A stretch of DNA of 16,551 nucleotides from the NCBI GenBank assembly GCA_964247135.1, contig CAXTTL010000101.1, forward strand, positions 1 to 16,551, given 5' to 3'. Positions 1 through 16,551 of this stretch are shown piece by piece. The translations under genes were made by a program, and so were the position numbers. The notes under the pieces were generated by a model. That model searched no databases, was not told the origin of the DNA, and worked only from the letters and a program-made list of their open reading frames with translations. The DNA is from an uncultured Deinococcales bacterium. Its GTDB lineage: Bacteria > Deinococcota > Deinococci > Deinococcales > JAAFIG01. Position 1 is the stretch's first letter. Each line of letters begins with the position of its first letter.

Positions 1-250
1 GATTGAAGTTTGGCTTTTGACAAGTCCGTAAACAAAGCCATTTCGCGTTCCGCTTTAGGTCTTGTGACCCCTCAGTTGCGTATCCAAACCGTCTCGAGAT
101 TCCATCGGCAGCGTCCTGCCCCAAGAATCCCAACGCCTGGGATTGCGCCAGAACCCCCTTTCCAGATCTTTTCGCCTGGGCATTGCGGCTCAAGCTCGGA
201 TTGATGCTAAGGGTGGACCGGTCACAACTTGGTCATAAGTTTGCCAACGG

Positions 251-284
251 CAATCAATACTATCGTACCAGACAGTATTGATTG
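251..284. promoter_or_regulatory. AT-rich perfect 11-bp inverted repeat with 12-nt spacer (operator or terminator-like hairpin)
   Basis: CAATCAATACT (251-261) and AGTATTGATTG (274-284) are exact reverse complements. It lies about 27 nt downstream of the stop of the minus-strand STAND gene. There is no clear U-tract. Confidence 0.4.
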
Positions 285-311
285 TCAGAAATTAGAACGG
301 AAAAACCCTTT

Positions 312-3300
312 TCAGACGCTTGGTTGTGGCGTCAGAAAACCGTCCATCGTTTCGGGAAGCAGTTCGCCAACCTCGAGCAACCTCGAGTAGCCTTCGGCGT
401 AAACCGAGCGTGCCCGTTTGAGATGACCGGCGCGTTCCAGGCAAGCCAGCGTCAAACGCAAGATTTTTGCATTGTAAGGCTCCATCTCGAGCAGGATTAA
501 GCCCAATCGGGCTGCCTCGTTCGGGTTTGACTCGAACAGCGATTCGACGCTGGTCTGCAAACCGGTGGTCAGGGCGTTGCGCACCCCAAGCAACCAATTG
601 TCTTCCAGGCTGCCCTGATACACCCCGCGCCAGAGTGATGAATCGCCAGTTTGCAAAAAGTCTTCGGCATCGCTCGAGATGGCTCCCAGGGCGTATCCAC
701 CTGCAGTGCTGACCAGGCTATCAACACCCAAGACAGAACGGTTGAGGTACACCAGTTGCTTGAGGGCTTTTTTCGCCTCCAATTCGGGCATGTTCGGATA
801 CAGCGCGACGACGAGTTCGCGGGTATTTGCCTCGGATCGACCAGAGATTCGCGTCTCGAGCAGGTAACTGAGAATCTCGAGGCGCTTGTGGGCGCGTGTG
901 ATGACGGGTTGATCGTTGCGAAACAGACGAATCGCGCCGAGCACCTCGATTCGCGCCGTCGTGAAAGAAACCTGCACTGGTTCGATCTCTTCGGTCAGGA
1001 AATCCCGCCTGGTTCGCAGGACGATTGCCCCAAGCCCGCGCCGTTCAAACCACTCGAGCAATTCCAAACCGCGCCGGCGGTCACCCCGAAGACGGGCGAT
1101 GGCAAGTTCAGCCTCGCGTTGATCCTCGATAAATGCGGTTTTGCGTGCGATTTCCTGCCAGCGAAGCAGTGCCGCATCCGGCTGACCGTTTGCCTCGAGG
1201 GCTGTCGCCAGGGCAAACTCGCAGGCACCAACGTCGGTCAGCGAAGTCAAACCGAGGGCGTTCGCCTCGAGCGCCAGTTTGAGCGCCTGTACGGGATCAC
1301 CAAGCCATGCCTCGATCCGCGCAGCGACCGCCAACGCAGCACCAAGGCAGCGCACGTTCGCCAGTTCGCGCGAATGCTGAACCGCGTCCCGAGCAAATTT
1401 TAATGCCAGCACGGCACCGTGCGGTGGACGCCACTGCGCGTAAAGATCGGCGAGCGCCCACTCGGCGTTCGCCAGCCTGTGGCTGACCTCGAGACGTGAC
1501 AGCGTTTCAAAGCCTGCCAAAATCAAGGCTTCGGCGTCACCAAAACGTCCCAACCGTGTCAAGATCGCACCGAGCACGGTTCTGGCATTCGCGCTGTACT
1601 CAAAGACCCCAGCCTGATCGCCCAACGAAATCGCATCCTCGAGGCTTTTGATCGCCTGCTGGTAACGACCCAGGCGGCACAGGTTGAACGAGCGGTTGTA
1701 GTAACTCGAGGCGATATTGCCCGCCCCACCGGCTTGCAGCGCCAGCTCGAGATGCTGCTCGTGCAACTGCTGGGCTTCCTCCAAGCGACCCTGTTCGGAG
1801 CGGATGAACGCCAGCATTCCAATCACATTGCGGTGTCTGCCGACAGGGTCTGGCTTTTCGAGCGCTTGGGCAATCAGGTGCTCAGCGTTTTGAAAGTCGC
1901 CCAGGTTCGCGTAGGCTTCCGCCGCGTAAGCGACGCTTCTGGGAAACTGAAGTAATTCTGGATGATCGCGCCAGGTTTGAAGCGCCTCCACCGAGTTCGT
2001 GCTGCGGGTTTGGGCATTGAACAGCGCATTCACCCAGCGGGCTTCGGAACGCTCACGCGCTGGCAGCTCGGCGATCAGGGCTTTGACCGGCTCAACTTGA
2101 CCGACAGTTGCCAAAGTCATCGCCAGCTTGAGCTGGGTGTCGCGGTTGTCGGGTTGTGCCCCATGAGCCAAACGCAGCAATTTCAGCCGTGGCGTGAAGG
2201 TTCCTCGGGTTTGAAACAGGGCGTCCGCCTCGAGCGCCAAGCGCATTCGCCCTTCACCGGAGGCGCGTTCGGCAGCCATTCCCAGCAGGTGCGCGGCACG
2301 GTCCAAATCGCCCTGCTCTCGCAACCGGGATGCGGCTCGCTCAAGGCGCTCGATTGCCGCCACAGGCTCGAGTCCCGCGTCATCGATGTAATCGGCAGCC
2401 AACACCAGATCGATTGGCTCGAGCACTTGCATGGCGCGCTCAGCGTAGCTGGCGCGTCGGGCTGCCGGCAGGTCGCGCCGCGTGATTTCGGCAAACAGTG
2501 GATGAACAAAGGCTTGGTTGTTGAATACACCACCGCGCTCGAGAAACCCAATGGCATCGAGCAGCGGCTGGCGTTCAAGCGCCGCAACGTGTTCCCAGAC
2601 GGACAAAAGCACGTCCAAAGCCAGATGATCCGGCAAGATCGCCCTGGTTTCCAGCACCGCCTGGATTTCTGGGGTCGTCGTCAAACCCAGGGTCAACTGC
2701 GAAATCAAAGCCTCGACCGTCATCGGCATAAAGTCTTCGGGAGGTTTGCGCCAGTGCCAGGATTCGCCGTCCGACCACAAAAAACCTTGACGGTTCAGGA
2801 ACCGCACAAACTCGAGCGTGAACAACGGATTGCCACAGGTGCGTCCAAACACCCACTCGAGTCCGTCGTTCGGGGCTGGGGCGTTCAACCCGTGTTCGAT
2901 CAACGCGGCTGTCTCCAAAAAAGAGAGTGGCTCGAGCTTGTGGTTTCGGATTGGCGCCGAGGGTTCTGATCGACCCGTGACCAGCAAACCCACCCCGCGC
3001 GTTCGAGCAATCGACTGGGCGAGCATCACAATCAAATCCAGACGCTCAACGCTTGCCTCGTGCGCATCTTCGAGGTGCAACACGAACGGCGCGAGCGCAC
3101 TTAAAATTGCCGCCAGCAACGCCGCAAAAGTGCTGTTCCCTGGCTGCTCACCGCGCTCGAGTCGCGCAAGTTGGGCTTGCACCCAAACGGGCTGTTTTTT
3201 GGCTTGGGGCAACATCGTAACGATCTGCACCGCGCCGGTCGTGGCGTGCAGGCTCAGATGACGGCACTGGACCCGCGACAGAACCTCACGGGCGGTGTGG

Positions 3301-3407
3301 GTCTTGCCGATTCCTGGTTCGCCCCAGAGTCCAACAGCCGTACCGACAAACTTGGAGACAACCACGTTCAGTTGCCGAGCAAGCTGCAACACAACATCTT
3401 GCCTCAC
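312..3407 (-). CDS. Large STAND/AAA-ATPase + TPR-repeat protein with C-terminal SARP/BTAD-like transcriptional activator region
   Basis: 1031-aa ORF with Walker A GEPGIGKT, Walker B LHLEDAH and a GNPLF motif typical of STAND NTPases. It has TPR-like helices (GRLEEAQQLH, GRYQQAIKSLEDA). The C-terminus IEVLGAIRLFR...LLEMEPYNAKILRLTLACLERAG resembles wHTH+BTAD. GTG start with AAGGGTG upstream. Confidence 0.8.
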   Translation of the reverse strand: MRQDVVLQLARQLNVVVSKFVGTAVGLWGEPGIGKTHTAREVLSRVQCRHLSLHATTGAVQIVTMLPQAKKQPVWVQAQLARLERGEQPGNSTFAALLAAILSALAPFVLHLEDAHEASVERLDLIVMLAQSIARTRGVGLLVTGRSEPSAPIRNHKLEPLSFLETAALIEHGLNAPAPNDGLEWVFGRTCGNPLFTLEFVRFLNRQGFLWSDGESWHWRKPPEDFMPMTVEALISQLTLGLTTTPEIQAVLETRAILPDHLALDVLLSVWEHVAALERQPLLDAIGFLERGGVFNNQAFVHPLFAEITRRDLPAARRASYAERAMQVLEPIDLVLAADYIDDAGLEPVAAIERLERAASRLREQGDLDRAAHLLGMAAERASGEGRMRLALEADALFQTRGTFTPRLKLLRLAHGAQPDNRDTQLKLAMTLATVGQVEPVKALIAELPARERSEARWVNALFNAQTRSTNSVEALQTWRDHPELLQFPRSVAYAAEAYANLGDFQNAEHLIAQALEKPDPVGRHRNVIGMLAFIRSEQGRLEEAQQLHEQHLELALQAGGAGNIASSYYNRSFNLCRLGRYQQAIKSLEDAISLGDQAGVFEYSANARTVLGAILTRLGRFGDAEALILAGFETLSRLEVSHRLANAEWALADLYAQWRPPHGAVLALKFARDAVQHSRELANVRCLGAALAVAARIEAWLGDPVQALKLALEANALGLTSLTDVGACEFALATALEANGQPDAALLRWQEIARKTAFIEDQREAELAIARLRGDRRRGLELLEWFERRGLGAIVLRTRRDFLTEEIEPVQVSFTTARIEVLGAIRLFRNDQPVITRAHKRLEILSYLLETRISGRSEANTRELVVALYPNMPELEAKKALKQLVYLNRSVLGVDSLVSTAGGYALGAISSDAEDFLQTGDSSLWRGVYQGSLEDNWLLGVRNALTTGLQTSVESLFESNPNEAARLGLILLEMEPYNAKILRLTLACLERAGHLKRARSVYAEGYSRLLEVGELLPETMDGFLTPQPSV

Positions 3408-3721
3408 ACAAGCACCCTTTGAGCTTTAACTGTTCGATTCTGCACGACATATTGTATTTGAAATATAGTGCAACTTAACTTTAACCCTCAAAAGTATTGT
3501 CTGGTGCAGTAAATATTACCTCAAAGGAGATCGCGCCAACCGGCAAACCCAAAACGATCACAATCCATCCCAAGTTAAATCTCAATCCCACTTCAAAAAT
3601 CAAAACCAATCACAGGCTCGGCACTCGAGTTTGACCTGCCACCACAAATTTCGGACCCGATCCCTCACTTCTGAGATCGGTTTCATGTTGGGTCCATGAC
3701 CCACAAGGCAAAAAATCAAAT

Positions 3722-4444
3722 TTATTGTTTCTTACGACTCTTTTTCGGCGCCGGCAAGGCGTTCATGCTCGAGACTCGGGTCGATATTTCATGTTGAAGT
3801 TTGGCAATGTCGTGCTCGAGGCGGTCTTGGGCGCTGTCAAGCTCGAAACGAAGCCGCATGATCTCCTCCACCCCAGCCAAGTTGACGCCAAGTTCTTGGG
3901 TTAAGCGCCGCACCTCGCGCAAATGATCGACATCGCGGTCAGAGTAAAGGCGCGTTTTACCGCCCGAACGGCGCGGACGAATCAAACCTTTGCGCTCATA
4001 CAAGCGCAAGGTCTGCGGATGCATTTCGACCAGTTCGGACGCCACCGAAATCACGTACACGGGGCGGTCCTTGGGGTCGCTCGAGACGCTGCCATTTTCG
4101 AGCGCTCGAGCCTCACGCTGGCTGGTTTCGAACTCGGAGCGCAGTTGCGTTTCCAAATCTGAAATTTCCATCTCGAGTTGGACTTGAACATCATCGAGTT
4201 CGTGCCTGAGTTTCATGACCTCCTCGACGCCAGCCAAATTGACGCCCAATTCTTGGGTCAAACGCCGAATCTCGCGCAGGTGATCGATGTCGCGCTCCGA
4301 ATACAACCGCGTTTTGCCGCTCGAGCGACCAGGACGAATCAAGCCCTTGCGTTCATAAAGGCGCAGGGTTTGTGGGTGCATGTCTGTCAGCTCTGCTGCG
4401 ACAGAGATCACGTAAACTGGGCGATCTCGAGCATCCTGGGTCAT
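3722..4444 (-). CDS. hspR: Heat-shock repressor HspR, fused tandem (two MerR-type HTH domains)
   Basis: Two near-identical repeats of [60 protein letters not shown], the HspR signature, each followed by a coiled coil. Confidence 0.9.
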
Positions 4445-4450
4445 GGTTAC

Positions 4451-4456
4451 AGTATA
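4451..4456 (-). promoter_or_regulatory. -10 box TATACT, 6 nt before the hspR ATG (leaderless promoter)
   Basis: Minus strand reads TATACT-gtaacc-ATG with no Shine-Dalgarno. Confidence 0.7.
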
Positions 4457-4477
4457 CCTGATAAGGGTACGCTCATG
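4457..4477. promoter_or_regulatory. Degenerate HAIR-like operator (possible HspR autoregulation)
   Basis: CCTGATA-N7-GCTCATG matches 9/14 positions of the HAIR consensus CTTGAGT-N7-ACTCAAG and abuts the hspR -10 box. Confidence 0.4.
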
Positions 4478-4598
4478 GAATCGTTTTGGTCACACTCGAG
4501 AATTGTAAAACCCAAGCAATAACTTTTTGATCGCATGGGTTCCTGAGGGCACGATGCGCAGATTCTCAAACTCAAATCCGGATCATCAACGCGCTGGG

Positions 4599-4604
4599 TA
4601 AACT
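4599..4604 (+). promoter_or_regulatory. -10 box TAAACT, 6 nt before the GTG of the PLD gene (leaderless promoter)
   Basis: TAAACT-tggaac-GTG with no Shine-Dalgarno. Confidence 0.6.
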
Positions 4605-4610
4605 TGGAAC

Positions 4611-5951
4611 GTGAACTATTTTAGGTATTTGATGGCGGTTTCGGCACTCGTTTTGGTCACCAGCGCCTGCCTCGAGCCGAGGGCGCAAGCGGGACACCCA
4701 AGTCCAGCAAAGCTTTTTATCGAACCCAAAGACGGCATTCAACCCATTTTGGCTGCCATCAACGCCGCCAAGCTTTCAATTCGGCACAAAATTTACTTGT
4801 TCACCGACTCGAGGCAAGACGTGATTGACGCCCTGGTTGCCGCCAAAACTCGAGGGGTGGATGTGAAAATATTGCTCGAGCGCGAACCGAGCGGAACGGT
4901 CGGCGGCAACACGGCGATTTTCTTAAAACTCAAAGATGCAGGCTTGAACGTACAATTGACCAAAGCGTTCAAGTTTGTCTTCGTTCACGAAAAAAGTTTT
5001 GTGATTGACAACCAAACCGCCATCATCTCCACCGCGAACATCACGGGCAGCAGTTTCTCGAGCAACCGCGAGTATTTGGTGCAACTCGAGCAGCCAGAAT
5101 TGGTGGGCGAGATTGCCAGTGTTTTTGATGCCGATTGGGCTGGAACAGATGTTGATCTCAAAGACGCCAAATTGGTTTGGAGTCCGAGCCAGACAACCTC
5201 AGCGGGTTTGGTGCGCGGCAACGCTCGAGCAAAAATCTTAGACCTGATTAACACCGCCAAGCAAAGTTTGCTGCTCGAGCAAGAGGCAATGGCGGATGAA
5301 GAAGTGATTCAGGCTTTGATTGCGGCGCAAGCTCGAGGGGTGATGGTTGGATTTGTGGGGTCGCCTAAACCACCCACTGACACGTACATTGTCGCCGGTG
5401 CAGAGCGATTGAAGGCGGCTGGCATCAAAATTCGTTGGTTGCTGAATAATTTTGTTCATGCCAAAGTTATTTTGGCAGACGATGCTCGAGCGTTCGTTGG
5501 CTCGGAAAACATCAGCATCAACAGTTTAAACGCCAACCGCGAACTTGGCGTGATCCTCGAGAAAACCGATGCACCTGAAGCGATAACGCAGCTCAAAACC
5601 CAACTCGAGGCTGATGTCAATTCAGGCGTTGAAGTGAACCCGTTCACCTTGCCAGCGTTAAAAGAAATCCAAGCTGCCGAAAAAATGTCCGAATTTCTTG
5701 GGCGTGAGGTGACGCTCGAGGGCGTAATTCAAGAAGTTGAAAAACGCGATACTGGTGTGAGTTTCCTCAAATTTGGAACTGGCGAACTTGCCCCTCGAGC
5801 CGTGGTGTTTGCCAGAAATTATGATGCTTTCGCGCAGCCGTTTCCAGATTTTTACAAAGGCAAACGCGTGCAAATTACGGGTCGGGTGCAACTGTACGGC
5901 GACTATTTTGAGGTCATTCTGGATTCGCCGAATCAAATCAAGCTGCTCTGA
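4611..5951 (+). CDS. Phospholipase D superfamily lipoprotein with C-terminal OB-fold-like domain
   Basis: Two HxKxxxxD motifs (HEKSFVID, HAKVILAD with downstream GSEN). N-terminal signal peptide ending LVTSAC (lipobox-like). The C-terminal ~85 aa GREVTLEGVI...GKRVQITGRVQLY...EVILDSPNQI resembles a nucleic-acid-binding OB fold. Confidence 0.85.
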   Translation: MNYFRYLMAVSALVLVTSACLEPRAQAGHPSPAKLFIEPKDGIQPILAAINAAKLSIRHKIYLFTDSRQDVIDALVAAKTRGVDVKILLEREPSGTVGGNTAIFLKLKDAGLNVQLTKAFKFVFVHEKSFVIDNQTAIISTANITGSSFSSNREYLVQLEQPELVGEIASVFDADWAGTDVDLKDAKLVWSPSQTTSAGLVRGNARAKILDLINTAKQSLLLEQEAMADEEVIQALIAAQARGVMVGFVGSPKPPTDTYIVAGAERLKAAGIKIRWLLNNFVHAKVILADDARAFVGSENISINSLNANRELGVILEKTDAPEAITQLKTQLEADVNSGVEVNPFTLPALKEIQAAEKMSEFLGREVTLEGVIQEVEKRDTGVSFLKFGTGELAPRAVVFARNYDAFAQPFPDFYKGKRVQITGRVQLYGDYFEVILDSPNQIKLL

Positions 5952-5968
5952 GCAAAGCCCCGAGTCCC

Positions 5969-6094
5969 GTAGGGTGCGCCGTGCGCACCACGAGAAAACT
6001 TGCCCAATTACAACGCTTAACGCGAGAATCTACAATCGATTTTGCAGGACTACTTGAAGCATGGGTTGTCAACGGTGCGCGAGGCGCACCCTAC
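5969..6094. repeat. REPIN: inverted pair of 21-bp GTAG-type REP units with 84-bp spacer
   Basis: GTAGGGTGCGCCGTGCGCACC (5969-5989) and GGTGCGCGAGGCGCACCCTAC (6074-6094; reverse complement GTAGGGTGCGCCTCGCGCACC). Each unit is GTAG plus a GGTGCGC-N3-GCGCACC hairpin. Confidence 0.85.
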
Positions 6095-6311
6095 CGAATC
6101 ATCTGGGAATTGCACTGCGCCGAGCTGTCGTTTAAAGCCCTCCAAACCTCACACGCTCGAGTTTCCACGGCGCAATTTCCAAAAACGAAACAGAATTGAC
6201 ACAAACTCAAGGTTTGATGATTCAATTCACAACTTAACCCCCTGTTGAAATGCTCGAGACTCTGGCATAATGCAAAGCGCAACTCAAGCAGGAAAATTTA
6301 GAGGAGGAAGT

Positions 6312-7430
6312 ATGAAGAAAGTCGCATTGGGAATTGTTGCTCTCGCACTCGCCGCAGGTTTTACCACGGCGCAACAACAAGTTCGCGTCGGGATCGCATT
6401 TGATGCCGGTGGCAAAAACGATAAGTCGTTCAACCAGAGCGCCTACGAGGGTGCTCAAAAAGCCGTCAAAGACCTGAAAATCGATTACCGCGATTTCGAG
6501 CCGAGCGACCCCAGCCAAGTCGGTCCAGGCATCCGTAAATTTGCCGAGGACGGTTTTGATCTGGTGATCGGTGTGGGCTTTGCCAACACTTCCGCCATTT
6601 CTGCCACCGCCAAAGAATTCCCAGACACCAAGTTTGCCGTGATCGACGACATTCCAGAGGGCGCGAATACAACCGGCGCAGTCTTCCGCGAACACGAGGG
6701 CAGCTTCTTGGTTGGATACATCGCCGGCAAGACCACCAGCACCAATGTCGTCGGTTTCGTCGGCGGCATGGACATTCCGTTGATTCACAAGTTCGATGCT
6801 GGTTACACCGCAGGCGTGAAATATGCTTGCCCCAAATGCACAGTTATTAGCAATTACGTCGGCACGACACCAGCCGCCTGGAATGACCCCGCCAAAGCCA
6901 AAGAAATCAGCGCCGCCCAAGCCGCCAAGGGAGCAGACATTATTTACGCCGCAGCCGGAGCCAGCGGTTCTGGCGTGCAAACCTATGTCAAAGACACCAA
7001 ATGCGTGGACGGTGCCAAATTGCCAGCAGGCGTTAAGTTAAACCCAATGAACGTGGCGATCAAGAACCTAGCGAAACCAGCCGATTACAAAGCCAAGTGC
7101 GTGGGTGCAAACGACCGTCCAATGTTCTTTATTGGTGTTGACGCCAACCAAAACTACCTTGGTGACAGTGACAACAATCCAAAGACCCTTAATTATGGTT
7201 TGACTTCCATGATGAAACGAGTAGATGTTGCCGTATATCAAATCATTAAAGATACCGTTGATGGAAAAGGTTGGACAAGCGGACCTCGGGAGTTTGGTTT
7301 GGACAACAATGGCGTTGGATATGCACTTGACGCCTACAACAAGTCACTCGTGAGCAGCACCACCATCAAGAAGCTCGAAGCGCTCAAAGCCGACATCATT
7401 TCGGGCAAGATCAAAGTTCCAAGCAAGTAA
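6312..7430 (+). CDS. BMP-family (PnrA/TmpC-like) ABC substrate-binding protein, probably for nucleosides
   Basis: Motifs GGKNDKSFNQSAYEG, FREHEGSFLVG, GADIIYAAAGASG, IGVDANQ and TSMMKRVD. Strong SD GAGGAGG before the ATG at 6312, so the 6270 start in the ORF track is probably too far upstream. The signal peptide has no lipobox Cys. Confidence 0.92.
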   Translation: MKKVALGIVALALAAGFTTAQQQVRVGIAFDAGGKNDKSFNQSAYEGAQKAVKDLKIDYRDFEPSDPSQVGPGIRKFAEDGFDLVIGVGFANTSAISATAKEFPDTKFAVIDDIPEGANTTGAVFREHEGSFLVGYIAGKTTSTNVVGFVGGMDIPLIHKFDAGYTAGVKYACPKCTVISNYVGTTPAAWNDPAKAKEISAAQAAKGADIIYAAAGASGSGVQTYVKDTKCVDGAKLPAGVKLNPMNVAIKNLAKPADYKAKCVGANDRPMFFIGVDANQNYLGDSDNNPKTLNYGLTSMMKRVDVAVYQIIKDTVDGKGWTSGPREFGLDNNGVGYALDAYNKSLVSSTTIKKLEALKADIISGKIKVPSK

Positions 7431-7450
7431 ACCAACACTCGAGTTATTTG

Positions 7451-7477
7451 GAGGGCGCTTTTGCGCCCTCTTTTTTT
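7451..7477 (+). terminator. Rho-independent terminator after bmp
   Basis: GAGGGCGC-TTTT-GCGCCCTC hairpin followed by T7. Confidence 0.85.
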
Positions 7478-7489
7478 GTGGCTCGAAAG

Positions 7490-7498: not shown

Positions 7499-7503
7499 GG
7501 GTC

Positions 7504-9060
7504 ATGACGCAAAATCACAAAGCTCAAAATGCCGTGGCAATGAACAACATCACCAAGCAATTTCCCTTGGTGCTGGCAAACGACAATGTCAGTTTTGAGG
7601 TGAGTTGGGGCGAGGTTCACGCGCTGGTCGGCGAGAACGGTGCGGGCAAAAGCACCCTGATGAAAATCTTGTACGGAATGCAGCGCCCAGACAGCGGCGA
7701 AATTGTGATTGACGGCAACAAACTTCAACTTTCCAACCCGAACGATGCGATCAAACAGGGCATCGGCATGGTGCATCAACATTTTATGCTGGTCGAACCA
7801 CTGTCCGTGATGGAGAACATCATTTTGGGTTTGGAGCCAGGCTCGAGCCTGGCAATGGACACCGGCGCGGCGCGAGTCAAGGTGGCGGCGCTGATCAAAC
7901 AATTTAATTTTGAGCTTTCACCCGAGGACATTATTGAAGAATTACCCGTGGGCAAGCAGCAAAAAGTTGAAATCTTAAAAATGCTCTACCGAAACTCGAG
8001 CATTTTGATTTTGGATGAACCGACGGCGGTGTTAACGCCAATGGAAACCGAGGAGTTGTTTGAATTCCTGAAAAGTTATGCGGCGGCGGGCAATGCGGTG
8101 ATTTTTATCTCGCACAAATTGCGCGAGGTGATCGAGGTCAGCAACCGCATTTCGGTCATGCGCAACGGCAGAATGATCGGCATGGTGGACACCGTCGGCA
8201 TCACCCCGCCCGAGATTGCCCGCATGATGGTCGGGCGCGACGTGATCTTAAATGTCGAGAAAAAACCAGCCGAACCAGGTGCGCCCGCCCTCGAGTTAAA
8301 CGGTTTAACTGTTGGGAAACGCGGTGAACGCGCCAAAGTCCACGGAGTGAGTTTTACCGTCCGAACGGCTGAAATCGTCGGCATTGCCGGCGTCGAAGGC
8401 AACGGACAATCCGAACTCGTCGAAGCCATCACAGGTTTGATCCACTCGAGCGGCACGATCAAATACATGGGCGCAAGTTTGGCGCATCAAGACTCGAGAA
8501 GCGTGCGCGAGGCTGGGGTCAGTCATATTCCAGAAGACCGCAACGAGCGGGGGTTGGTGCTCGAGTATTCGACGAGCGAAAATTTGATTCTGGGCGATCA
8601 GCACACGAGATTAAACGCTGGAAGTTTTGGTTTGCTGGACTTTAACGGCATTGAGACCAGGGCGCGAGCATTGGTTGAAGAATTTGATGTTCGACCACGC
8701 AGCATCGAACTGCCAGCCTCGAATTATTCGGGCGGCAACGCCCAAAAAATTATTGTGGCGAGGGAACTCTCACGCGATCCAAAAATTTTGATTGCCTCTC
8801 AGCCAACTCGAGGGGTGGACATTGGCGCGATTGAATTTATTCACGAACAGATCGTGGCGGCTCGTGACAAGGGCTTGGGCGTCTTGCTGGTCAGCGCCGA
8901 CCTGGGCGAAGTGATGAGCTTGTCGGACCGTATTTTGGTAATGTACGAGGGTGAAATTGTCGGCGAAATGCCAGCCTCGGAAGCCACAGAAGAGCGTTTG
9001 GGACTTTTGATGGCTGGCGTACACGGCGAAACAAAAACGCAGGAGCTTGTCTCGAGTTGA
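7504..9060 (+). CDS. ABC transporter ATP-binding protein with two NBDs (CUT2 nucleoside/sugar type)
   Basis: Walker [21 protein letters not shown], and a second degenerate NBD ([30 protein letters not shown]). Adjacent to the BMP gene. Confidence 0.95.
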
Positions 9061-9063
9061 GTT

Positions 9064-9122
9064 GTAGGGTGCGCCTTGCGCACCGTGTTTCACGTGTTCT
9101 TGGTGCGCAGGGCGCACCCTAC
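9064..9122. repeat. REPIN: inverted pair of 21-bp GTAG-type REP units with 17-bp spacer
   Basis: GTAGGGTGCGCCTTGCGCACC (9064-9084) and GGTGCGCAGGGCGCACCCTAC (9102-9122). Same family as 5969-6094, differing only in the loop bases. Confidence 0.88.
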
Positions 9123-9173
9123 TCTCGAGAAATTCGTTTTGCCAATTGCCAGTCGCTCTTTTAGGAGATTCCC

Positions 9174-10316
9174 ATGATTGATTTTTCGCTCACCGAAGAA
9201 CAAAAACAACTTCAAAGCCTGGCTCGAGAATTCGCTCGAGAAGAGATCATTCCTGTGGCGGCAGAATTTGACCAAAGCGAGGAATACCCAGCAAAAGTGA
9301 TTGCCAAAGCCGCCGAAATCGGCTTGCTGAACGTTTCAGTGCCCGAACACGCGGGCGGTCTTGGTTTGGGAATGCTCGACGAGTGCATTTTGGGCGAAGA
9401 GCTGGCGTATGGCTGTATGGGCATGTACACGATCATGATGGCATCTGAGTTGGGCATCACACCGATTGTCATCGGAGGCACTAAGGCGCAACAAAAACAA
9501 TGGCTCGAGCCTTTACTTTCGGGGGCAAAACTGGCATCGTTTGCGCTTTCGGAACCAGGCAACGGTTCGGATGCAGCCGCACTCAAAACCAAAGCCGTGA
9601 TTGAAGGCGACGAAATTATTTTAAACGGCACGAAAATGTGGATCACTAACGGTGGCATTGCCGAATTCGCCGTGGTATTCGCCACCGTGGACCAAAGTTT
9701 ACGAACCAAAGGAAGCGTGGCAATCATCGTCCCTCGAGAAACCAAAGGTTTTAGCCACAACAAAATTCATCACAAGATGGGTCAACGCGCCAGTTACACC
9801 AGTGAGTTGGTGTTTGAAGACGCTCGAGTTCCAATTGCCAACATGCTCGGTGGCGTGGGTGACGGCTTCAAAATCGCCATGAAAACGCTGGACAAAACCC
9901 GAATTCCGGTTGCGGCGGGCAGCAACGGCATCACCAAACGGGCGCTCGAGGAAAGCATCAAGTACGCCAAGGCACGCGAAGCTTTTGGCAAACCGATTTC
10001 TGAATTTCAGTTGATTCAAGCCAAAATTGCCGAGATGTACATGGGACTCGAGACAGCAAGGTTAGCGACATTCAAAGCCGCTTGGTTGGTGGACAACGGC
10101 TTGCCGCATGTCTCCGAGGCGGCACTGGCGAAAGCCTATGCCAGCGAAGTCGCTTTCAATGCCGCCAACGAAGCCATTCAGGTTCACGGCGGTTTTGGTT
10201 ACGTCGGCGAGTATCCCGTCGAAAAACTCTTGCGTGACGCGAAACTGAACATGATTTTTGAAGGCACGAACGAAATTCAACGGCTTGTGATGGCGCGGGG
10301 CTTGCTCAAAGATTGA
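9174..10316 (+). CDS. Acyl-CoA dehydrogenase (short/medium-chain type)
   Basis: Motifs FALSEPGNGSDA, LNGTKMWITNG, AIQVHGGFGY and IFEGTNEIQRL. SD AGGAG upstream. Confidence 0.95.
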   Translation: MIDFSLTEEQKQLQSLAREFAREEIIPVAAEFDQSEEYPAKVIAKAAEIGLLNVSVPEHAGGLGLGMLDECILGEELAYGCMGMYTIMMASELGITPIVIGGTKAQQKQWLEPLLSGAKLASFALSEPGNGSDAAALKTKAVIEGDEIILNGTKMWITNGGIAEFAVVFATVDQSLRTKGSVAIIVPRETKGFSHNKIHHKMGQRASYTSELVFEDARVPIANMLGGVGDGFKIAMKTLDKTRIPVAAGSNGITKRALEESIKYAKAREAFGKPISEFQLIQAKIAEMYMGLETARLATFKAAWLVDNGLPHVSEAALAKAYASEVAFNAANEAIQVHGGFGYVGEYPVEKLLRDAKLNMIFEGTNEIQRLVMARGLLKD

Positions 10317-10352
10317 TAAGCAAACTAAAATCCACTCTCACAATTAAAACCC

Positions 10353-10358
10353 TAAGCT
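10353..10358 (+). promoter_or_regulatory. -10 box TAAGCT, 6 nt before the ATG of the S41 peptidase (leaderless promoter)
   Basis: TAAGCT-cgagcc-ATG. Overlaps a CTCGAG at 10357-10362. Confidence 0.55.
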
Positions 10359-10364
10359 CGAGCC

Positions 10365-11663: not shown

Positions 11664-11729
11664 AAACTCGAGCTTTAAGAATTGATGCGATACTCGAGAG
11701 ATTTACTAACGTGCCACGTTCATCCCCGA

Positions 11730-11755
11730 CCCTTCTCCCGCAAGCGGGAGAAGGG
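11730..11755. terminator. GC-rich hairpin between convergent genes (possible terminator or small palindromic repeat element)
   Basis: CCCTTCTCCCGC-AA-GCGGGAGAAGGG, a perfect 12-bp inverted repeat between the S41 peptidase (+) and aminopeptidase (-) stops. Confidence 0.6.
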
Positions 11756-11799
11756 AGTTTCATTGTGATACACGATTGGCTCGAGATTTTGCCAATTGC

Positions 11800-12915
11800 T
11801 TATTTCAAGTTTTCAGGATTCAAGCCATGCAAATCCTTTGGCACAAACAAACCATCTTTGCGAATCAATTCGTCGTCAAAGTAAATCTCGCCGCCGCCGT
11901 ATTCTGGGGTTTGAATAAAAACCATGTCCCAGTGAACGCTCGAGCGGTTGGTGTTGTCGGCGACGCCCTCGTAGGCTTGCCCTGGGGTGAAGTGAAAACT
12001 GCCCGCGATTTTTTCGTCGAACAAAATGTCGAGCATGGGCTTGGTGACGTAGGGGTTGAAGCCGATGGCGAACTCGCCGATGTACCTTGCGCCGTCGTCG
12101 GCATCCAAAATTTCGTTGAGGCGTTTGGTATCGCTGCCCGTGGCGTCAACGATCTTGCCGTCTTTAAACTCGAGTGTGATGTCGCTAAACTTTACGCCTT
12201 GATAGATTGTTGGCGTGTTGTATTTGATAACGCCGTTGACGCTGTCACGAACTGGGGCGGAGAAAATCTCGCCGTCGGGAATGTTGCGCTCGCCTGCGCA
12301 AATGATCGCGCCAAGACCTTTCAGGGAAAACTCGAGGTTTGTGCCAACGCCAGTCAAACGCACGCGTTCGGCTTTGTCCATTCGGGCTTTTAAGGGTTGC
12401 TGCGCGGCTTCCATTTTGGCGTAATCGAGGGTGCAAACATTGAAGTAAAAATCCTCGAAGGCTTCGGTGCTCATGCCCGCACTTTGGGCGAAGGCGGGGC
12501 TGGGGTAACGCAAAACCACCCATTTGGTTTTGTTGATGCGGTGACGGTGAACCTTTCCCCACACCTCTTTTTGGTAGAGCGCCATGTTGTCGCTTGGCAC
12601 ATCTGAACTCTCGAGCGCATTTAAACTGCCGCGAATGCCGATGTACGCATCCATTTGTTCCATGCGATTTAATTCCCAACTCGCCCAGCGTTCAACCATG
12701 TCTTGACTGGCGTTTTGCAAGAGTTTGCGCAAAATACGGTTGTTTTTGGTTTCAACAAACGGAATTGCACCAGCCGCAACGGTGCGATCAATCAGTGCCG
12801 AGACGATGTCTTCTGGAACATCAAACGCCTCGATCAGAACGCGTTCTCCAGCTTTTAACTTCGTTGAATGCGACACCAGAACATCAGCCAATTTGAGAAT
12901 ACGCGAGTCTGCCAT
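11800..12915 (-). CDS. Aminopeptidase, M29 family (AmpS/aminopeptidase T type)
   Basis: Motifs NIPDGEIFSAP, IGEFAIGFNP, LFDEKIAGSFHFTPGQAY and NRSSVHWDMV. SD GGAGG before the ATG at 12915 (MADSRILK), so the 12996 start in the ORF track is too far upstream. Confidence 0.93.
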   Translation of the reverse strand: MADSRILKLADVLVSHSTKLKAGERVLIEAFDVPEDIVSALIDRTVAAGAIPFVETKNNRILRKLLQNASQDMVERWASWELNRMEQMDAYIGIRGSLNALESSDVPSDNMALYQKEVWGKVHRHRINKTKWVVLRYPSPAFAQSAGMSTEAFEDFYFNVCTLDYAKMEAAQQPLKARMDKAERVRLTGVGTNLEFSLKGLGAIICAGERNIPDGEIFSAPVRDSVNGVIKYNTPTIYQGVKFSDITLEFKDGKIVDATGSDTKRLNEILDADDGARYIGEFAIGFNPYVTKPMLDILFDEKIAGSFHFTPGQAYEGVADNTNRSSVHWDMVFIQTPEYGGGEIYFDDELIRKDGLFVPKDLHGLNPENLK

Positions 12916-13072
12916 AAAACCTCCAAGAAACTCGAGATTTGAGGCTCGAGCGCATTTTTTCGTGTCGCCATTCTCACTGGTTTTGACGGCTTGCAACAGG
13001 AATGTGGGTTGCGATTCAAAAGCTCGTCTAGCTGTCTAGCCAGCGCACTCGAGCTATACAAAGCCTCGAGCG

Positions 13073-13078
13073 TAACGT
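13073..13078 (+). promoter_or_regulatory. -10 box TAACGT, 6 nt before the trpB ATG (leaderless promoter)
   Basis: TAACGT-gacagc-ATG with no Shine-Dalgarno. Confidence 0.55.
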
Positions 13079-13084
13079 GACAGC

Positions 13085-14323
13085 ATGAACCTTCCAACTT
13101 ATCCATTGCCGAATGAACGCGGGCGTTTTGGTCGTTTTGGTGGACGCTACGTTCCAGAAACCTTGATTCCCGCGCTCGAGGAACTGCGTGAATCCTATGC
13201 CGCCGCCAAAGTTGATCCTGACTTCTTGAACGAATTTCACAGCATTTTGCGGGAATATGTTGGGCGTCCCTCGAGGTTGTATTTTGCCAAGAACCTGACC
13301 GAACGCTTGGGCGGTGCAAAAATTTACTTCAAGCGCGAGGATTTGAACCACACGGGCGCTCACAAGATCAACAACACGATAGGTCAAGTGCTGCTGGCAA
13401 AACGCATGGGCAAAAAACGGATCATCGCCGAGACGGGCGCGGGTCAACACGGCGTCGCCACCGCCACCGCCTGCGCGTTGTTCGGACTCGAGTGCATCGT
13501 CTATCAGGGCGAGGAAGACGTGCGCCGCCAGAGTTTGAATGTGTTTCGCATGAAGCTTTTGGGCGCGGAAGTTCGCCCCGTCTCGAGCGGCACCAAAACC
13601 TTGAAAGACGCCACCAATGAAGCCATTCGGGATTGGGTCACCAATGTTCGGGACACATTTTACGTGCTCGGCAGCGTGGTCGGACCGCATCCGTACCCCG
13701 CAATGGTGCGAGATTTTCAAAGCGTGATCGGTGAGGAGACCAAAGCCCAGTTGCTCGAGGTCGAAGGGCGAGAAATTCCAGATGCGCTGGTGGCTTGCGT
13801 GGGTGGCGGCAGCAACGCGATTGGTTTGTTTGCGCCGTTCGCCTACCTTGATCCTGCGATTCGTCCGCGTTTGATTGGCGTCGAGGCGGCTGGTCACGGC
13901 GTCGAATCGGGTTTGCACGCCGCCAGCGTTGCGGGTGGCAAAGTTGGCGTACTTCACGGCAGCATGATGTATTTGCTTTACGACGATAACGGTCAAATAC
14001 AACCCGCGCACAGCATCAGCGCCGGACTTGACTACCCAGGCATCGGACCCGAGCACAGCTTTTACGCCGAAACCCGAGTTGCCGAGTACGTGCCAGCCAC
14101 CGACACCGAGGCGCTCGAGGGTTTCAAATTACTTTCTGAATGCGAGGGCATTATTCCCGCGCTCGAGACGGCGCACGCGGTGGCTTACCTGCGCAAACTC
14201 GCGCCAGAAATGGGCAAAGACAAAATTATTGTCGTCAATCTTTCTGGTCGCGGCGACAAGGACGTGAACGAAGCCATGCGAATCTTGGGTGATCTCGCAG
14301 GTAAAGGTGACGCCAATGATTAA
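13085..14323 (+). CDS. trpB: Tryptophan synthase beta subunit
   Basis: [30 protein letters not shown] (PLP lysine), [21 protein letters not shown] and NLSGRGDKD. Confidence 0.99.
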
Positions 14324-14444
14324 TGCATTTCTCCGTAGGGGCGCTGCTTGCGACCCAAGCCCGTTAGGTGCTGTTTTAGGGTCAAGAAGCTGCGCCCTGC
14401 ATTGCCTCGCCATACCGTGCCACACCTCGAGGTTTTGCTCATGA
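14316..14444 (+). CDS. Putative 42-aa small ORF bridging trpB and trpA
   Basis: ATG at 14316 overlaps the end of trpB (ATGATTAA) and is preceded by SD-like AAGGTGA. It reads [42 protein letters not shown] and stops at TGA 14442-14444, overlapping the trpA ATG (ATGA). No recognisable homology. Confidence 0.3.
14335..14400. repeat. Degenerate GTAG-type REP pair in the trpB-trpA spacer
   Basis: GTAGGGGCGCTGCTTGCGACCC (14335-14356) faces GGGTCAAGAAGCTGCGCCCTGC (14379-14400; reverse complement GCAGGGCGCAGCTTCTTGACCC). The pair is imperfect and is a different variant from the two REPINs upstream. Confidence 0.55.
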
Positions 14445-15217
14445 CCACCCGTATTCAAGATGCTTTTGACCACGCCAAATCCGAGAATCGCGCCGCCTTC
14501 ATCGGGTATTTGCCCGCAGGCTATCCCACCCAAGAATCGTTTCTCGAACACGCCAAAGTGTTGCTCGAGAGTGCCGATTTGCTCGAGATTGGATTGCCGT
14601 ATTCCGACCCGCTCGGCGATGGTCCAACAATTCAAAAGGCGTCCGAGGTTTCATTGTTGGGCGGTATGACGGTTGAGGGGACGTTTAAGCAGGCTCGAGC
14701 GCTTCGGGCGATCACAAACAAGCCACTCTTAATCATGACCTATTACAACCCCATTCTGGCAACAGGTGAGGAATCGTTTATCGCCAGTGCCGTCGAGGCT
14801 GGGATTGATGGTCTAATCTTGCCCGATCTTCCGCCAGACGAAGCCGACACGCTGATTCCTCTGGCGACAGCGGCAGGACTGAAACTGACGTTCTTACTCG
14901 CACCAACCAGCACACCAGACCGCATCAAACTGGTCACGGACCATTGCACAGGCTTCATTTACGCCGTTTCCGTCACAGGCGTGACTGGCGCTCGAGCGCT
15001 CGTACCAACTGAAGTCCCCGATCTCGTCTCGAGAATCAAAGCCATTTCGGATAAACCTGTTGCCGTCGGTTTTGGTGTTGCAGACGCTCAGACCGCCAAT
15101 GGCATTGCCCAAGTTGCCGATGGCGTGGTGGTTGGCAGCATTCTGGTCACGATTGCTGGCAATGGCGAATCGTTGCAAGCCAAAGCCCAAGAGATTCTGG
15201 CGGGTTGTAAGCGTTAA
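14441..15217 (+). CDS. trpA: Tryptophan synthase alpha subunit
   Basis: LEIGLPYSDPLGDGPTIQ, MTYYNP, YAVSVTGVTG, VGFGV and ADGVVVGS. The likely start is ATG 14441 (MTTRIQDAF) with GAGG upstream. The TTG 14348 extension runs through the REP. Confidence 0.98.
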   Translation: MTTRIQDAFDHAKSENRAAFIGYLPAGYPTQESFLEHAKVLLESADLLEIGLPYSDPLGDGPTIQKASEVSLLGGMTVEGTFKQARALRAITNKPLLIMTYYNPILATGEESFIASAVEAGIDGLILPDLPPDEADTLIPLATAAGLKLTFLLAPTSTPDRIKLVTDHCTGFIYAVSVTGVTGARALVPTEVPDLVSRIKAISDKPVAVGFGVADAQTANGIAQVADGVVVGSILVTIAGNGESLQAKAQEILAGCKR

Positions 15218-15220
15218 ACT
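15215..15220 (+). promoter_or_regulatory. -10 box TAAACT overlapping the trpA stop, 6 nt before ATG 15227
   Basis: TAAACT-cgagtg-ATG. Overlaps CTCGAG 15219-15224. Confidence 0.55.
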
Positions 15221-15226
15221 CGAGTG

Positions 15227-16081
15227 ATGACTTGGTTGAAACATTTAAAAATTGGCGCGGTTGATGTTTATTCATTGACCGACGGAAAATTTCGGCTGGA
15301 TGGCGGCAGCATGTTCGGCACAGTTCCCAAGGTCTTGTGGGAAAAAGTTGCACCACCAGACTCGAGCAACCGCATTCACTTGCGTATCAACCCGCTTTTG
15401 ATTCAAATGCAAGGCAAAAACATTCTGGTCGAAACTGGTATGGACGATAAATCGGGTGACAAGTTTGACGCCATGTTTGCTGTTGAGCGCGACGAAACAA
15501 TTTTTGACGGTTTGAAACAATTGTCGCTCGAGCCTAAAGACATTGATTTGGTTATCAACACGCATTTGCATTTCGATCACGCTGGACGAAACACCACCCC
15601 AAATCTCGAGCCAACTTTTTCAAACGCTCGGTACATCGTACAAAGCCAAGAACTTTATGACGCGACCCACGCACACGAACGATCTCGAGCTTCGTACAAC
15701 GCCCACAATTTCATTCCAATTCTCGAGCGAGGTTTGTTTGATTTGGTCGAAGGTAAAACCGAAATAATGCCAGGTTTAAAAGTCTTACCGATACCAGGGC
15801 ATAACCTTGGTTCGCAGGCGGTGGTGCTCGAGTCCGAAGGGCAGGGTTTGGTTTATGTGGCGGATTTGATTCCGACCTTCAACCACGCCCAATACCCGTT
15901 TATCATGGGTTTTGACTTGTACCCAGTCACCACGCTCGAGACGCTTAAAAGAGTGTTCCCCCAATGGGCGCAACGCGGGATTGTAAGCGCGCCCCCTCAT
16001 GATCCAAATCATGCTTTTGGCAAATTGAAGGCTCGAGAACGTGGTGGGTTTGATCTCGAACCGCAAACCCAAACATTGTAA
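15227..16081 (+). CDS. Metallo-beta-lactamase-fold hydrolase (YtnP/lactonase-like)
   Basis: HxHxDH motif THLHFDH, plus FRLDGGSMFG..PK..W, PGHNLG, ADLIP and HDP. Confidence 0.92.
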   Translation: MTWLKHLKIGAVDVYSLTDGKFRLDGGSMFGTVPKVLWEKVAPPDSSNRIHLRINPLLIQMQGKNILVETGMDDKSGDKFDAMFAVERDETIFDGLKQLSLEPKDIDLVINTHLHFDHAGRNTTPNLEPTFSNARYIVQSQELYDATHAHERSRASYNAHNFIPILERGLFDLVEGKTEIMPGLKVLPIPGHNLGSQAVVLESEGQGLVYVADLIPTFNHAQYPFIMGFDLYPVTTLETLKRVFPQWAQRGIVSAPPHDPNHAFGKLKARERGGFDLEPQTQTL

Positions 16082-16084
16082 ACT
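16079..16084 (+). promoter_or_regulatory. -10 box TAAACT overlapping the MBL stop, 6 nt before ATG 16091
   Basis: TAAACT-gagttt-ATG with no Shine-Dalgarno. Confidence 0.55.
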
Positions 16085-16090
16085 GAGTTT

Positions 16091-16551
16091 ATGAAACAAA
16101 AATCTGGGTTCGATCTTTGGAGCTTCTGGCTCACTCGAGTGGTGCTCGCTCTTGTCTTGACGATAGGCATTCGGGTGATCGTTGCCATCTTGGACGGTGC
16201 AGGATTGCCGATGCTGGTCACTCGAGCGCTTGGATTGATGATTGGCATTGGTGCGATGCTGGGGCTGGGCAGGATCAATTGGTTGCAGACAGCCACGAAT
16301 GGTTTGACACCCAAAAATCCCGCTCGAGGATTGTTCTACGGCGCTCTTGCCGGAATCTTTTTGTACAGTTGCATCGTGCTGATTGCCGCTGTTGCAGGTT
16401 GGTATTCGGTAGGATCAATTTCATTTGATGCGGCTGGTCTGTTGCGTGTTTTTGCCTTGCTGGTTTTTGCGGCAGCCTTTGAAGAGGTTTTGTTTCGTGG
16501 CATTTTGCTTGGGTCACTCGAGAAATCCGTAGGAACCGCTTGGGCACTGGC
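16091..16551 (+). CDS. CPBP-family (CAAX/Abi) intramembrane metalloprotease, 5' part, truncated by the window end
   Basis: Not in the ORF track. Translated by hand from ATG 16091: MKQKSGFDLWSFWLTRVVLALVLTIG...LLVFAAAFEEVLFRGILLGSLEKSVGTAWAL. It has several hydrophobic helices and the EExxFRG motif, and is open to the window end. Confidence 0.88.
   Translation, partial: MKQKSGFDLWSFWLTRVVLALVLTIGIRVIVAILDGAGLPMLVTRALGLMIGIGAMLGLGRINWLQTATNGLTPKNPARGLFYGALAGIFLYSCIVLIAAVAGWYSVGSISFDAAGLLRVFALLVFAAAFEEVLFRGILLGSLEKSVGTAWAL

Follow-up and report, generated by a model that had tools for sequence, protein, structure and literature searches.

Dispersed CTCGAG copies in the window

The DNA analyzed here (the window) is a 16,551-bp stretch, contig C101 of the source genome (G000) of an uncultured Deinococcales bacterium (5,091,702 bp in 386 contigs, 84% complete), and the element in question is the hexamer CTCGAG. 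By exact count, 115 dispersed copies of this palindrome span positions 93-16522 of the window, at a mean spacing of ~144 bp. The initial annotation had tallied about 115 copies against 4-5 expected, an excess of about 25-fold; both figures hold, base composition predicting ~4.6 copies. When the window was shuffled 200 times with its dinucleotides preserved, the mean was 3.06 copies (sd 1.67, maximum 7), and a count of at least 115 was reached in 0 of 200 shuffles.

Twelve open reading frames (ORFs) were called in the window. Eleven have Pfam support and encode a STAND/TPR protein, MerR, a PLD nuclease-like protein, Bmp, an ABC ATPase, an acyl-CoA dehydrogenase, S41 and M29 peptidases, TrpB, TrpA and a protein of the metallo-beta-lactamase fold; the twelfth, an Rce1-like fragment, has weaker Pfam support. 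By Pfam annotation of these 12 ORFs, no nuclease or methylase able to read CTCGAG is encoded in the window, and the earlier statement that the window encodes no responsible enzyme stands.

The 12 ORFs contain 101 of the sites. As had been reported, these fall in genes of both strands and in all three frames, with 56 read as CTC-GAG, 22 as xCT-CGA-Gxx and 23 as xxC-TCG-AGx. The remaining 14 sites are outside called ORFs (93, 3624, 4495, 6156, 6253, 7438, 9124, 10357, 11667, 11693, 11780, 13048, 13065 and 15219). Nine sites had originally been called intergenic, and seven of these are; the other two, at 12931 and 12945, are both inside 11800-12996, the M29 peptidase ORF at its longest reading. 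They are located upstream of the M29 Pfam match, and whether they are genic hinges on the true start codon.

Several of the sites stand close together or beside repeats. The sites at 9051 and 9124 surround an inverted repeat resembling repetitive extragenic palindromic (REP) elements between the ABC ATPase and acyl-CoA dehydrogenase genes (9051-9129), and those at 11667, 11693 and 11780 flank a REP-like hairpin in the convergent spacer of the S41 and M29 peptidase genes (11667-11785). The sites at 13048 and 13065 are 17 bp apart, just 5' of trpB (13048-13070).

Excess across the genome

The source genome contains 33,925 copies of CTCGAG, which is one per 150 bp or 6,660 per Mb. The observed/expected ratio (O/E) was 24.8 under a zero-order null, 35.2 under a first-order null and 14.4 under a second-order null. 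CTCGAG is also the most abundant hexamer of this genome, with 67,850 occurrences on both strands, followed by 11,958 for the next non-overlapping hexamer. A density of 2.6-10.5 per kb was found in every one of the 297 contigs longer than 5 kb and, as described below, all 19 genomes of the family carry the excess, which is thus not confined to the contig where it was first noticed. High-GC genomes used for comparison held 0-7 copies per 14-21 kb, about the number expected by chance. An assembly or library artefact, named at the outset as something that could overturn the observation, is ruled out because the excess is shared by 19 of 19 family assemblies, including one complete single-contig genome.

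Under an order-4 Markov (5-mer) null, the O/E fell to 1.24. The excess does shrink under this null, as had been considered possible, yet it is not refuted by it, and the value is uninformative because the null is circular: the sub-words owe their abundance to CTCGAG itself. In the source genome, CTCGA is followed by G in 88% of cases and 62% of all TCGA tetramers are inside CTCGAG. A dicodon-preserving null would likewise fix CTC-GAG by construction. Outside CTCGAG, TCGA was observed 20,685 times against 19,755 expected, and the hexamer is therefore the unit. The flanking bases agree with the original view that nothing longer is involved, since they are only weakly biased across the genome (G at -1 in 39%, C at +1 in 39%, A at -3 in 37%), in a symmetric A-N-G / C-N-T arrangement.

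Depletion of the one-mismatch neighbours had been proposed as a check on the excess, and none was seen in the source genome (O/E of 1.74 for TTCGAG, 1.17 for CTTGAG and 1.43 for CCCGAG). Transition neighbours were more frequent than transversion neighbours, and the ratio of the motif to its neighbours was ~15-20 after correction for composition.

Coding sequence, spacers and the proteome

Synonymous codons were shuffled within each of the 3,946 called genes of the source genome, preserving the proteins and the codon usage of each gene, a usage that is itself already inflated by CTCGAG. Observed copies numbered 26,722 versus 3,707 after shuffling, a 7.2-fold excess. By frame, the excess was 5.8-fold for CTC-GAG (16,762 versus 2,914), 15-fold for xCT-CGA-G (3,862 versus 257) and 11.4-fold for xxC-TCG-AGx (6,098 versus 535). 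Density was 6.62 per kb in coding DNA versus 9.45 per kb in spacers of 30-300 bp. Protein coding and codon bias are thus insufficient to account for the word, as had been argued from the window, since a 7.2-fold excess is left when amino acids are preserved and spacers are denser than genes.

Of all dipeptides in the predicted proteome, Leu-Glu exceeds its expected number most (O/E of 2.37; 21,544 copies), and the reverse dipeptide Glu-Leu has an O/E of 1.01. Leu-Glu is encoded as CTCGAG in 77.8% of cases, versus 11.6% predicted from codon frequencies. The pressure for CTCGAG has altered the proteins, Leu-Glu having more than doubled.

Spacing along the chromosome

Genome-wide, the distance between sites had a mean of 148 bp, a median of 108 bp and a coefficient of variation of 0.96. 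Gaps of 20 bp or less made up 4.4% versus 12.6% under a geometric law, and gaps longer than 300 bp made up 10.7% versus 13.2%. Pair density was 163 at distances of 10-40 bp versus a plateau of ~236, so that sites closer than ~40-70 bp are in deficit. Head-to-tail copies, which would create GAGCTC, had zero occurrences. Apart from the 3-bp coding period, neither a helical (10-11 bp) nor a longer periodicity was seen. The longest gaps free of CTCGAG were few and mostly in AT-rich DNA.

Across 2-kb windows with a GC content of 35-60%, O/E against local composition was flat at 22-26 fold. AT-rich "foreign" islands lacking the word are not claimed, since O/E is flat across local GC. Density reached 11-12.6 per kb in the first 40 bp after stop codons and 10.2 per kb in convergent spacers, with a dip in the first 20 bp of genes. 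DNA that could not be aligned to a sister genome had 5.35 sites per kb versus 6.86 for aligned DNA, a comparison made on a metagenome-assembled genome (MAG), in which binning removes atypical contigs. No cluster of CTCGAG was found at dnaA in any of four genomes (G011, G000, G147 and G056), where the maximum within 10 kb was 3-8 sites per 500 bp and not above the local background.

Conservation and turnover of sites

The source genome was compared with a genome of the same genus (G005) over 242.5 kb of aligned DNA at 85% identity. CTCGAG was kept at 1,357 of 1,716 sites (79%), versus 45% for all hexamers, and ranked first in conservation among 666 frequent hexamers. Per-base identity was 93.9% within CTCGAG and 85.5% outside. 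The protection covers exactly six bases, with identities of 0.93-0.946 that drop to 0.81-0.90 from the first flanking base onward. All six positions were equally protected, and losses and gains were frequent and spread over all of them. Private sites numbered 359 in the source genome and 273 in G005, of which only 13 and 15 stood opposite gaps; gain and loss of CTCGAG therefore occur by substitution. Among the losses, transitions at the CpG cytosine (to CTTGAG or CTCAAG) were the rarest with 39 cases, the other two transitions accounting for 58 and 54. The losses thus carry no signature of 5-methylcytosine.

The sites of the window itself were kept in five genomes of the same genus at 59/74, 55/62, 50/62, 45/51 and 40/43 of the covered sites. 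The trpB gene (13085-14323, plus strand) contains 7 sites, several of them at positions common across the family. Column 402 of trpB had CTCGAG in both MAG loci of Trueperaceae as well as in 14 of 17 family genomes, so that single sites are common across genera. Columns 497 and 1029 carried the word in 14 and 13 of the 17 family genomes, respectively, and three Deinococcus trpB loci had 0 copies. Eight genomes of genera g1-g3 have a site at column 669 and eight of genera g4-g5 have one at column 675, 6 nt away; no genome has both. Two genomes without the site at column 90 carry one at column 99. The alternation of sites in trpB may represent compensatory turnover or single inherited shifts.

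Distribution in Deinococcales

The order was surveyed with 151 genomes, of which 19 belong to the family of the window and one of these (G011) is complete on one contig. All 19 family genomes contained 12,028-35,442 copies of CTCGAG, or ~4.3-6.8 per kb, and the complete genome contained 23,515. The TrpB of the window is nearest to records of Trueperaceae and Deinococcus, at 73-77% identity. The proposal of the initial annotation that the word is an independent one of the highly iterated palindrome (HIP) type, kept up at the DNA level in a non-cyanobacterial lineage, is supported.

Outside the family, sampling covered three other families, with 20-60 kb taken from each of seven genomes (GC 46-68%), along with two MAG loci of Trueperaceae. 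CTCGAG was the hexamer with the highest O/E in 7 of 7 of these genomes (5.1 to 15 fold) and in 2 of 2 Trueperaceae loci. Genomes of genus g13 (3.0-3.8 Mb, 64% GC) held 7,000-9,800 copies each, with an O/E of 10.7 in the sampled G116. Genomes of a Deinococcus-like family contained only 37-1,193 copies, versus ~1,400 estimated for 4 Mb at 67% GC, and a locus of Deinococcus saxicola contained 0. The word would accordingly appear to be old and order-wide (four families), extreme in the family of the window and counter-selected in the Deinococcus-like family.

Among the matches listed, high-GC viral contigs in IMG/VR (GC 0.59-0.69) had a ~10-fold excess of CTCGAG over the number predicted by base composition, for example 49 copies versus 5 expected in 14.7 kb. 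These contigs were picked for having three close CTCGAG sites, so the excess is partly due to ascertainment, and among the matches listed, mostly contigs of high GC, the host signature was lacking. Two of them had no useful relatives among named phages.

Nucleases, methylases and other candidate enzymes

Across the 151 genomes of the order, the XhoI nuclease family (PF04555) was detected in 6, none of them among the 19 of the family of the window. In family f4, the XhoI-family nuclease adjoins a 340-aa methylase of PF01555. This XhoI-linked type of methylase was present in 33 of 151 order genomes; within the family of the window it was represented in 1 of 19 genomes by a weak partial match at 43%, and within the CTCGAG-enriched genus g13 in 0 of 10. 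Genus g9, in which the XhoI-family nuclease was not found, had homologues of this methylase at 62-66% identity in 15 of its 22 genomes. In a sister family (G015:C1:73699-77256), genes for an XhoI-family nuclease and a PF01555 methylase are convergent, and genomes with such nuclease loci still hold 0.7-1.8 CTCGAG per kb. The XhoI-family nuclease of G026 is broken by stops and stands beside a TaqI-like gamma-class methylase.

A search of seven Pfam methylase families returned no orthologue common to G000, G005, G007, G009, G011 and G012; five of these six genomes are MAGs of partial completeness, and the hits were clustered only in part. Of the 19 family genomes, none had Dam (PF05869) and one had MT-A70. 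Vsr (PF03852) gave no match in the source genome at its 84% completeness. RecC (PF04257) was found in 0 of 151 order genomes; AddAB was not searched.

Most methylases of the source genome have partners. A C-5 methylase stands with an NgoPII-like nuclease (O/E of 0.02 for GGCC), another C-5 methylase with an Eco29kI-like nuclease (11 copies of CCGCGG), a PF01555 methylase with a BcnI/MvaI-like nuclease (CCSGG 856 versus CCWGG 13,311) and a further methylase with a NotI-like nuclease (3 copies of CGGCCG). The loci of these four restriction systems are on contigs C14, C178, C189 and C207. Many other palindromes were depleted 10-150 fold, among them CGTACG, GCATGC, CGATCG, GCGCGC, TCGCGA, GGATCC and CAGCTG. 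The enzymes on contigs C21 and C192 were rejected as CTCGAG methylases, being MmeI-like type IIG enzymes. A solitary PF01555 methylase on contig C36, between housekeeping genes, was rejected as the driver since it occurs in only 5 of 19 family genomes, two of them by weak matches. This leaves a type I-like N6 methylase of 802 aa and a frame of 1,502 aa that matches N6/Eco57I. Proteins of ~500 aa with weak Eco57I matches, present in many family genomes, were also set aside as diverse type I HsdM proteins with 24-41% identity and HsdS neighbours.

The complete genome G011 contains one C-5 methylase, two D12 methylases (one solitary) and one MT-A70 methylase, and no match to PF01555. Its hits to PF02384/PF07669 are type I HsdM with HsdS, except for one in a 1,111-aa frame. 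By tblastn the first of its D12 enzymes (D12a) was absent from the source genome, and neither D12a nor D12b was related to the D12 hits of G009 and G012.

Exchanging the two half-sites of CTCGAG gives GAGCTC, which had 0 copies in the 5.09 Mb of the source genome; GRGCYC had 11 versus ~6,100 expected. Glu-Leu, with 9,232 dipeptides, is never encoded by GAGCTC. A D12 methylase with a SacI-like nuclease (G000:C320:1064-2985) is kept in G011 at 83% and 72% identity, and the avoidance of GAGCTC in both genomes is attributed to this nuclease and its methylase. The SacI-like system was rejected as a common cause of the contrast between CTCGAG and GAGCTC, as its nuclease was detected in no more than 11 of 19 family genomes, with weak matches in four of these. 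Most family genomes contain 0-25 copies of GAGCTC, and across the order high CTCGAG tends to accompany low GAGCTC, the Deinococcus-like family excepted.

Other features of the window

The longest stretch of the window free of CTCGAG, 1,185 bp between the sites at 6253 and 7438 (6259-7437), contains the whole of the Bmp/PnrA-like substrate-binding gene (6270-7430). This gene has 0 sites in 1,161 bp, where ~7.7 would be expected at 6.6 per kb. Although free of sites, it is kept at 83-89% identity in genomes of the same genus.

REP-like intergenic hairpin repeats were located at 9061-9122, 11710-11799 and 14302-14403, and other copies were present in the assemblies at 84-95% identity. The repeat at 9061-9122 recurs elsewhere in G000 (94%), that at 11710-11799 in G003, and that at 14302-14403 in G000, G001, G002 and G003.

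On the minus strand, positions 312-3407 encode a protein of 1,031 aa in which TPR repeats accompany an N-terminal ATPase of the AAA_16/STAND type; it may be a signal-transducing or defence-type NTPase. Long ORFs also run antisense to real genes, at 13028-14056 (minus strand, 342 aa) opposite trpB, at 6234-6980 (minus strand, 248 aa) opposite Bmp, and at 9212-9763 (minus strand). These antisense ORFs look spurious.

Comparison with known repeated words

According to the accounts cited, the HIPs of cyanobacteria comprise HIP1, GCGATCGC, and the alternatives GGCGCC, GCsGC, rCCGGy, TCGATCGA and GGGATCCC (Elhai 2015, PMC4390886; Xu et al. 2018, PMC5861425). HIP1 is described there as enriched 15-300 fold at 300-2,700 copies per Mb (PMC4390886), and as accompanied by the conserved orphan methylases DmtA and DmtC, whose targets are inside the word (PMC4390886; PMC5861425). 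It has been proposed as an uptake or transformation signal (10.1101/2024.09.10.611283; PMC13756078). Like these words, CTCGAG is a short palindrome that is hyper-abundant in genes and spacers, conserved beyond the neutral level, and lineage-wide with exceptions, and its function is likewise unexplained. Its O/E of 25-35 is inside the range given for HIP1. It differs in phylum and in word, in being a hexamer and not an octamer, and in its density, which at 6,660 per Mb is above the 300-2,700 per Mb given for HIP1. Moreover, the HIP1 core CGATCG is avoided in the source genome (47 copies versus 1,789 expected, order-4 Markov), and no conserved orphan methylase matching CTCGAG, equivalent to DmtA or DmtC, was found in the family. 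In its fold excess, its presence in all frames and in non-coding DNA, its conservation and its sharing across the lineage, CTCGAG is a HIP, broadly defined.

Similarities also exist with the uptake signal sequences (USS) of Pasteurellaceae and the DNA uptake sequences (DUS) of Neisseriaceae. In the accounts cited for these, the encoded peptide is roughly doubled and its reverse is not, copies are commoner outside genes and near gene ends and are fairly evenly spaced, and related genera share the word (PMC2817400; PMC7811141). CTCGAG resembles them in occurring in all frames, in a doubled peptide with an unchanged reverse, in an excess outside genes and at gene ends, in a fairly even distribution, and in being explicable by drive without benefit to the cell. 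CTCGAG lacks the features of HIP1 proper and the architecture of USS and DUS, yet it resembles both in its genomic footprint.

In Nocardiaceae, an orphan CTCGAG methyltransferase and clusters of its motif beside dnaA are described in the report cited (Blow et al. 2016, PMC4752239). The word is the same there and again has no partner nuclease, but it is origin-clustered and served by one conserved methylase, whereas in the family studied here it is dispersed and without a cluster at dnaA. XhoI/PaeR7I systems, which occur in sister families, share the site, although their targets are normally avoided, as in Deinococcus-like genomes, and not enriched 25-fold. A Vsr/Dcm-type word such as CCWGG of E. 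coli comes with Vsr and with depleted T-for-C neighbours, neither of which was seen for CTCGAG in the source genome. Chi is asymmetric, oriented and read by a RecBCD-type enzyme, whereas CTCGAG is palindromic in an order where RecC was not detected. A literature search, which did not reach supplementary tables or REBASE, returned no published account of CTCGAG as an over-represented word.

Interpretation

CTCGAG is almost certainly a real, lineage-wide and actively maintained word of the HIP kind. It builds up by point substitution, in genes in all frames and more so between genes, under a force that reads the whole hexamer and nothing beyond it and favours CTCGAG alleles ~15-20 fold over their one-mismatch neighbours. 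A ratio of this size would correspond to a small benefit at each site, with Ne*s (effective population size times selection coefficient) at ~3. The required force is selection or allele-level drive, and not mutation bias at particular bases.

The reading tentatively preferred, with a probability of about 0.35, is that CTCGAG serves as a self-DNA tag that is read at uptake or recombination during natural transformation and is spread by molecular drive, and that neither restriction-modification of the XhoI type nor a conserved orphan methylase produces it as a side effect. Alleles bearing the word would be transmitted more often, as proposed for USS and DUS, and the protein that reads it would belong to the uptake or recombination machinery. 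A tag is favoured because CTCGAG shares most of the genomic properties of USS and DUS, namely the enrichment of Leu-Glu, the preference for gene ends, the spacing, the graded recurrence in relatives and perhaps the somewhat lower density in unshared DNA. The nearby replacement of sites in trpB fits a rule of one site per neighbourhood and was counted in favour of a tag, as were the uptake role proposed for HIP1 and a methylase alternative left without its enzymes. If so, CTCGAG could possibly be the shortest and by far the densest known uptake or self-recognition signal, ancestral to most Deinococcales. Deinococcus would have lost it or selected against it, and in the family of the window drive linked to transformation would have raised it to one per 150 bp; this extended version is the more doubtful of the two.

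Several points weigh against a tag. No uptake receptor or CTCGAG-reading protein was found. ComEC and DprA were each present in 5 of 5 family genomes tested but also in 10-11 of 14 controls, including non-transformable ones, so that their presence is weak evidence. USS and DUS are asymmetric words of 9-12 bp with flanking preferences at about one per kb, whereas CTCGAG is an exact 6-bp palindrome without a flank signal and is about seven-fold denser, and a site of this shape is typical of type II restriction/modification-type enzymes. The word is depleted in Deinococcus-like genomes, although Deinococcus is transformable, and Thermus is reported to take up DNA without sequence preference. With O/E flat at any local GC, a class of recently acquired, tag-poor DNA could not be shown in a MAG. 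Finally, the even spacing and the nearby replacement of sites equally fit a selected site for a chromosomal protein.

Such a site is the basis of one alternative, in which an abundant dimeric DNA-binding protein (a nucleoid organiser, a repair or segregation factor, or a defence sensor of self and non-self) would need CTCGAG every 100-200 bp and the word would be under direct selection. The conservation of the whole motif would fit, and a footprint, or saturation, would produce the deficit of close pairs. The shortage of mid-length gaps relative to random placement, the replacements in trpB, the constant O/E at any local GC and the independence from any methylase all point the same way. A protein of this kind was nevertheless not found as a candidate, helix-turn-helix dimers usually need more than 6 bp with no spacer, the sites showed neither a helical nor a longer periodicity, and 34,000 sites of tiny effect would demand a very large effective population size, which together make the explanation an improbable one. 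We regard as comparably improbable that the word is linked to methylation, as for HIP1, with every CTCGAG methylated by orphan and possibly non-orthologous methylases and used for the choice of strand in repair, for the timing of replication or for XhoI-type protection, and with selection keeping the density high. Type II methylases read just such a site, with six equal positions and none in the flanks, the order does contain XhoI-type systems (f4, with methylase homologues in genus g9), and solitary methylases are present in the source genome (PF01555, C36) and in G011 (D12 class). An orphan CTCGAG methylase is described for Nocardia (PMC4752239), and CTCGAG is among the methylated motifs of hot-spring communities in preprint passages that leave the phylum unstated (bioRxiv 10.64898/2026.06.24.734251). 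The enzymes themselves do not follow this pattern, since the XhoI nuclease is missing from all family genomes searched, the linked methylase is one weak match there and is missing from the enriched g13, and G011 combines its many sites with no PF01555 match. The C36 methylase, MT-A70 and Dam are likewise rare or not found in the family, the D12 types are not common to it, the PF02384/PF07669 hits of G011 are mostly HsdM, and the C-5 enzymes of the source genome are paired with nucleases for GGCC and CCGCGG. No 5-methylcytosine signature and no dnaA cluster (0 of 4 genomes) were seen. The shape of the site favours methylation and the gene content does not.

The initial annotation had suggested a CTCGAG methyltransferase coupled to biased repair, which the data do not support: neighbours are not depleted, the six positions are equal, Vsr was not matched in the source genome, the XhoI nuclease is in 0 of 19 family genomes and no common methylase was found. 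Its other suggestions, an uptake or self-recognition tag and a site for a nucleoid protein, correspond to the tag and protein-site readings weighed above. More generally, very-short-patch-like or other context-dependent repair could turn near-cognates into CTCGAG and leave the word functionless. Coding and non-coding DNA are affected alike, as such a process would predict, and drive mimics selection in conservation tests. Transition neighbours, however, are commoner than transversion neighbours, patch repair guards only the methylated cytosine where all six positions are protected here, and gains and losses are frequent at every position, so that this mechanism is very unlikely. Less probable again is a Chi-like hotspot at which the palindrome would halt end-resection of the RecBCD/AddAB type within ~150 bp of a break. 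A palindrome would work in both orientations, and the role would suit a lineage noted for surviving many double-strand breaks; known Chi sequences are asymmetric and far less enriched, and RecC was not detected in the order (AddAB being outside the search). An origin of the excess in composition, codon usage or assembly has next to no standing. Its one point of support is the low order-4 O/E, which is circular, and it is opposed by the excess left after the amino-acid-preserving shuffle, by the denser spacers, by the agreement of 19 assemblies and by ordinary high-GC genomes at chance.

Significance

Beyond the initial annotation, the present analysis adds the order-wide distribution, the enzyme survey, the analyses of spacing and flanks, and the argument from the neighbour spectrum. 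In practice, CTCGAG distorts k-mer binning, codon and dipeptide statistics (~12,000 extra Leu-Glu) and restriction-based methods. It is also a very strong taxonomic signature by which the DNA of these organisms and their mobile elements can be spotted in metagenomes.

HIPs have been a puzzle in cyanobacteria for thirty years, and the debate has been tied to two conserved methylases. CTCGAG seems to be another case that arose independently, at a higher density and in a phylum without such methylases. If so, the phenomenon reaches beyond the biology of cyanobacteria and may have a cause other than methylation. If CTCGAG is indeed a self-DNA tag, HIP-type words and uptake sequences would be two faces of one phenomenon.

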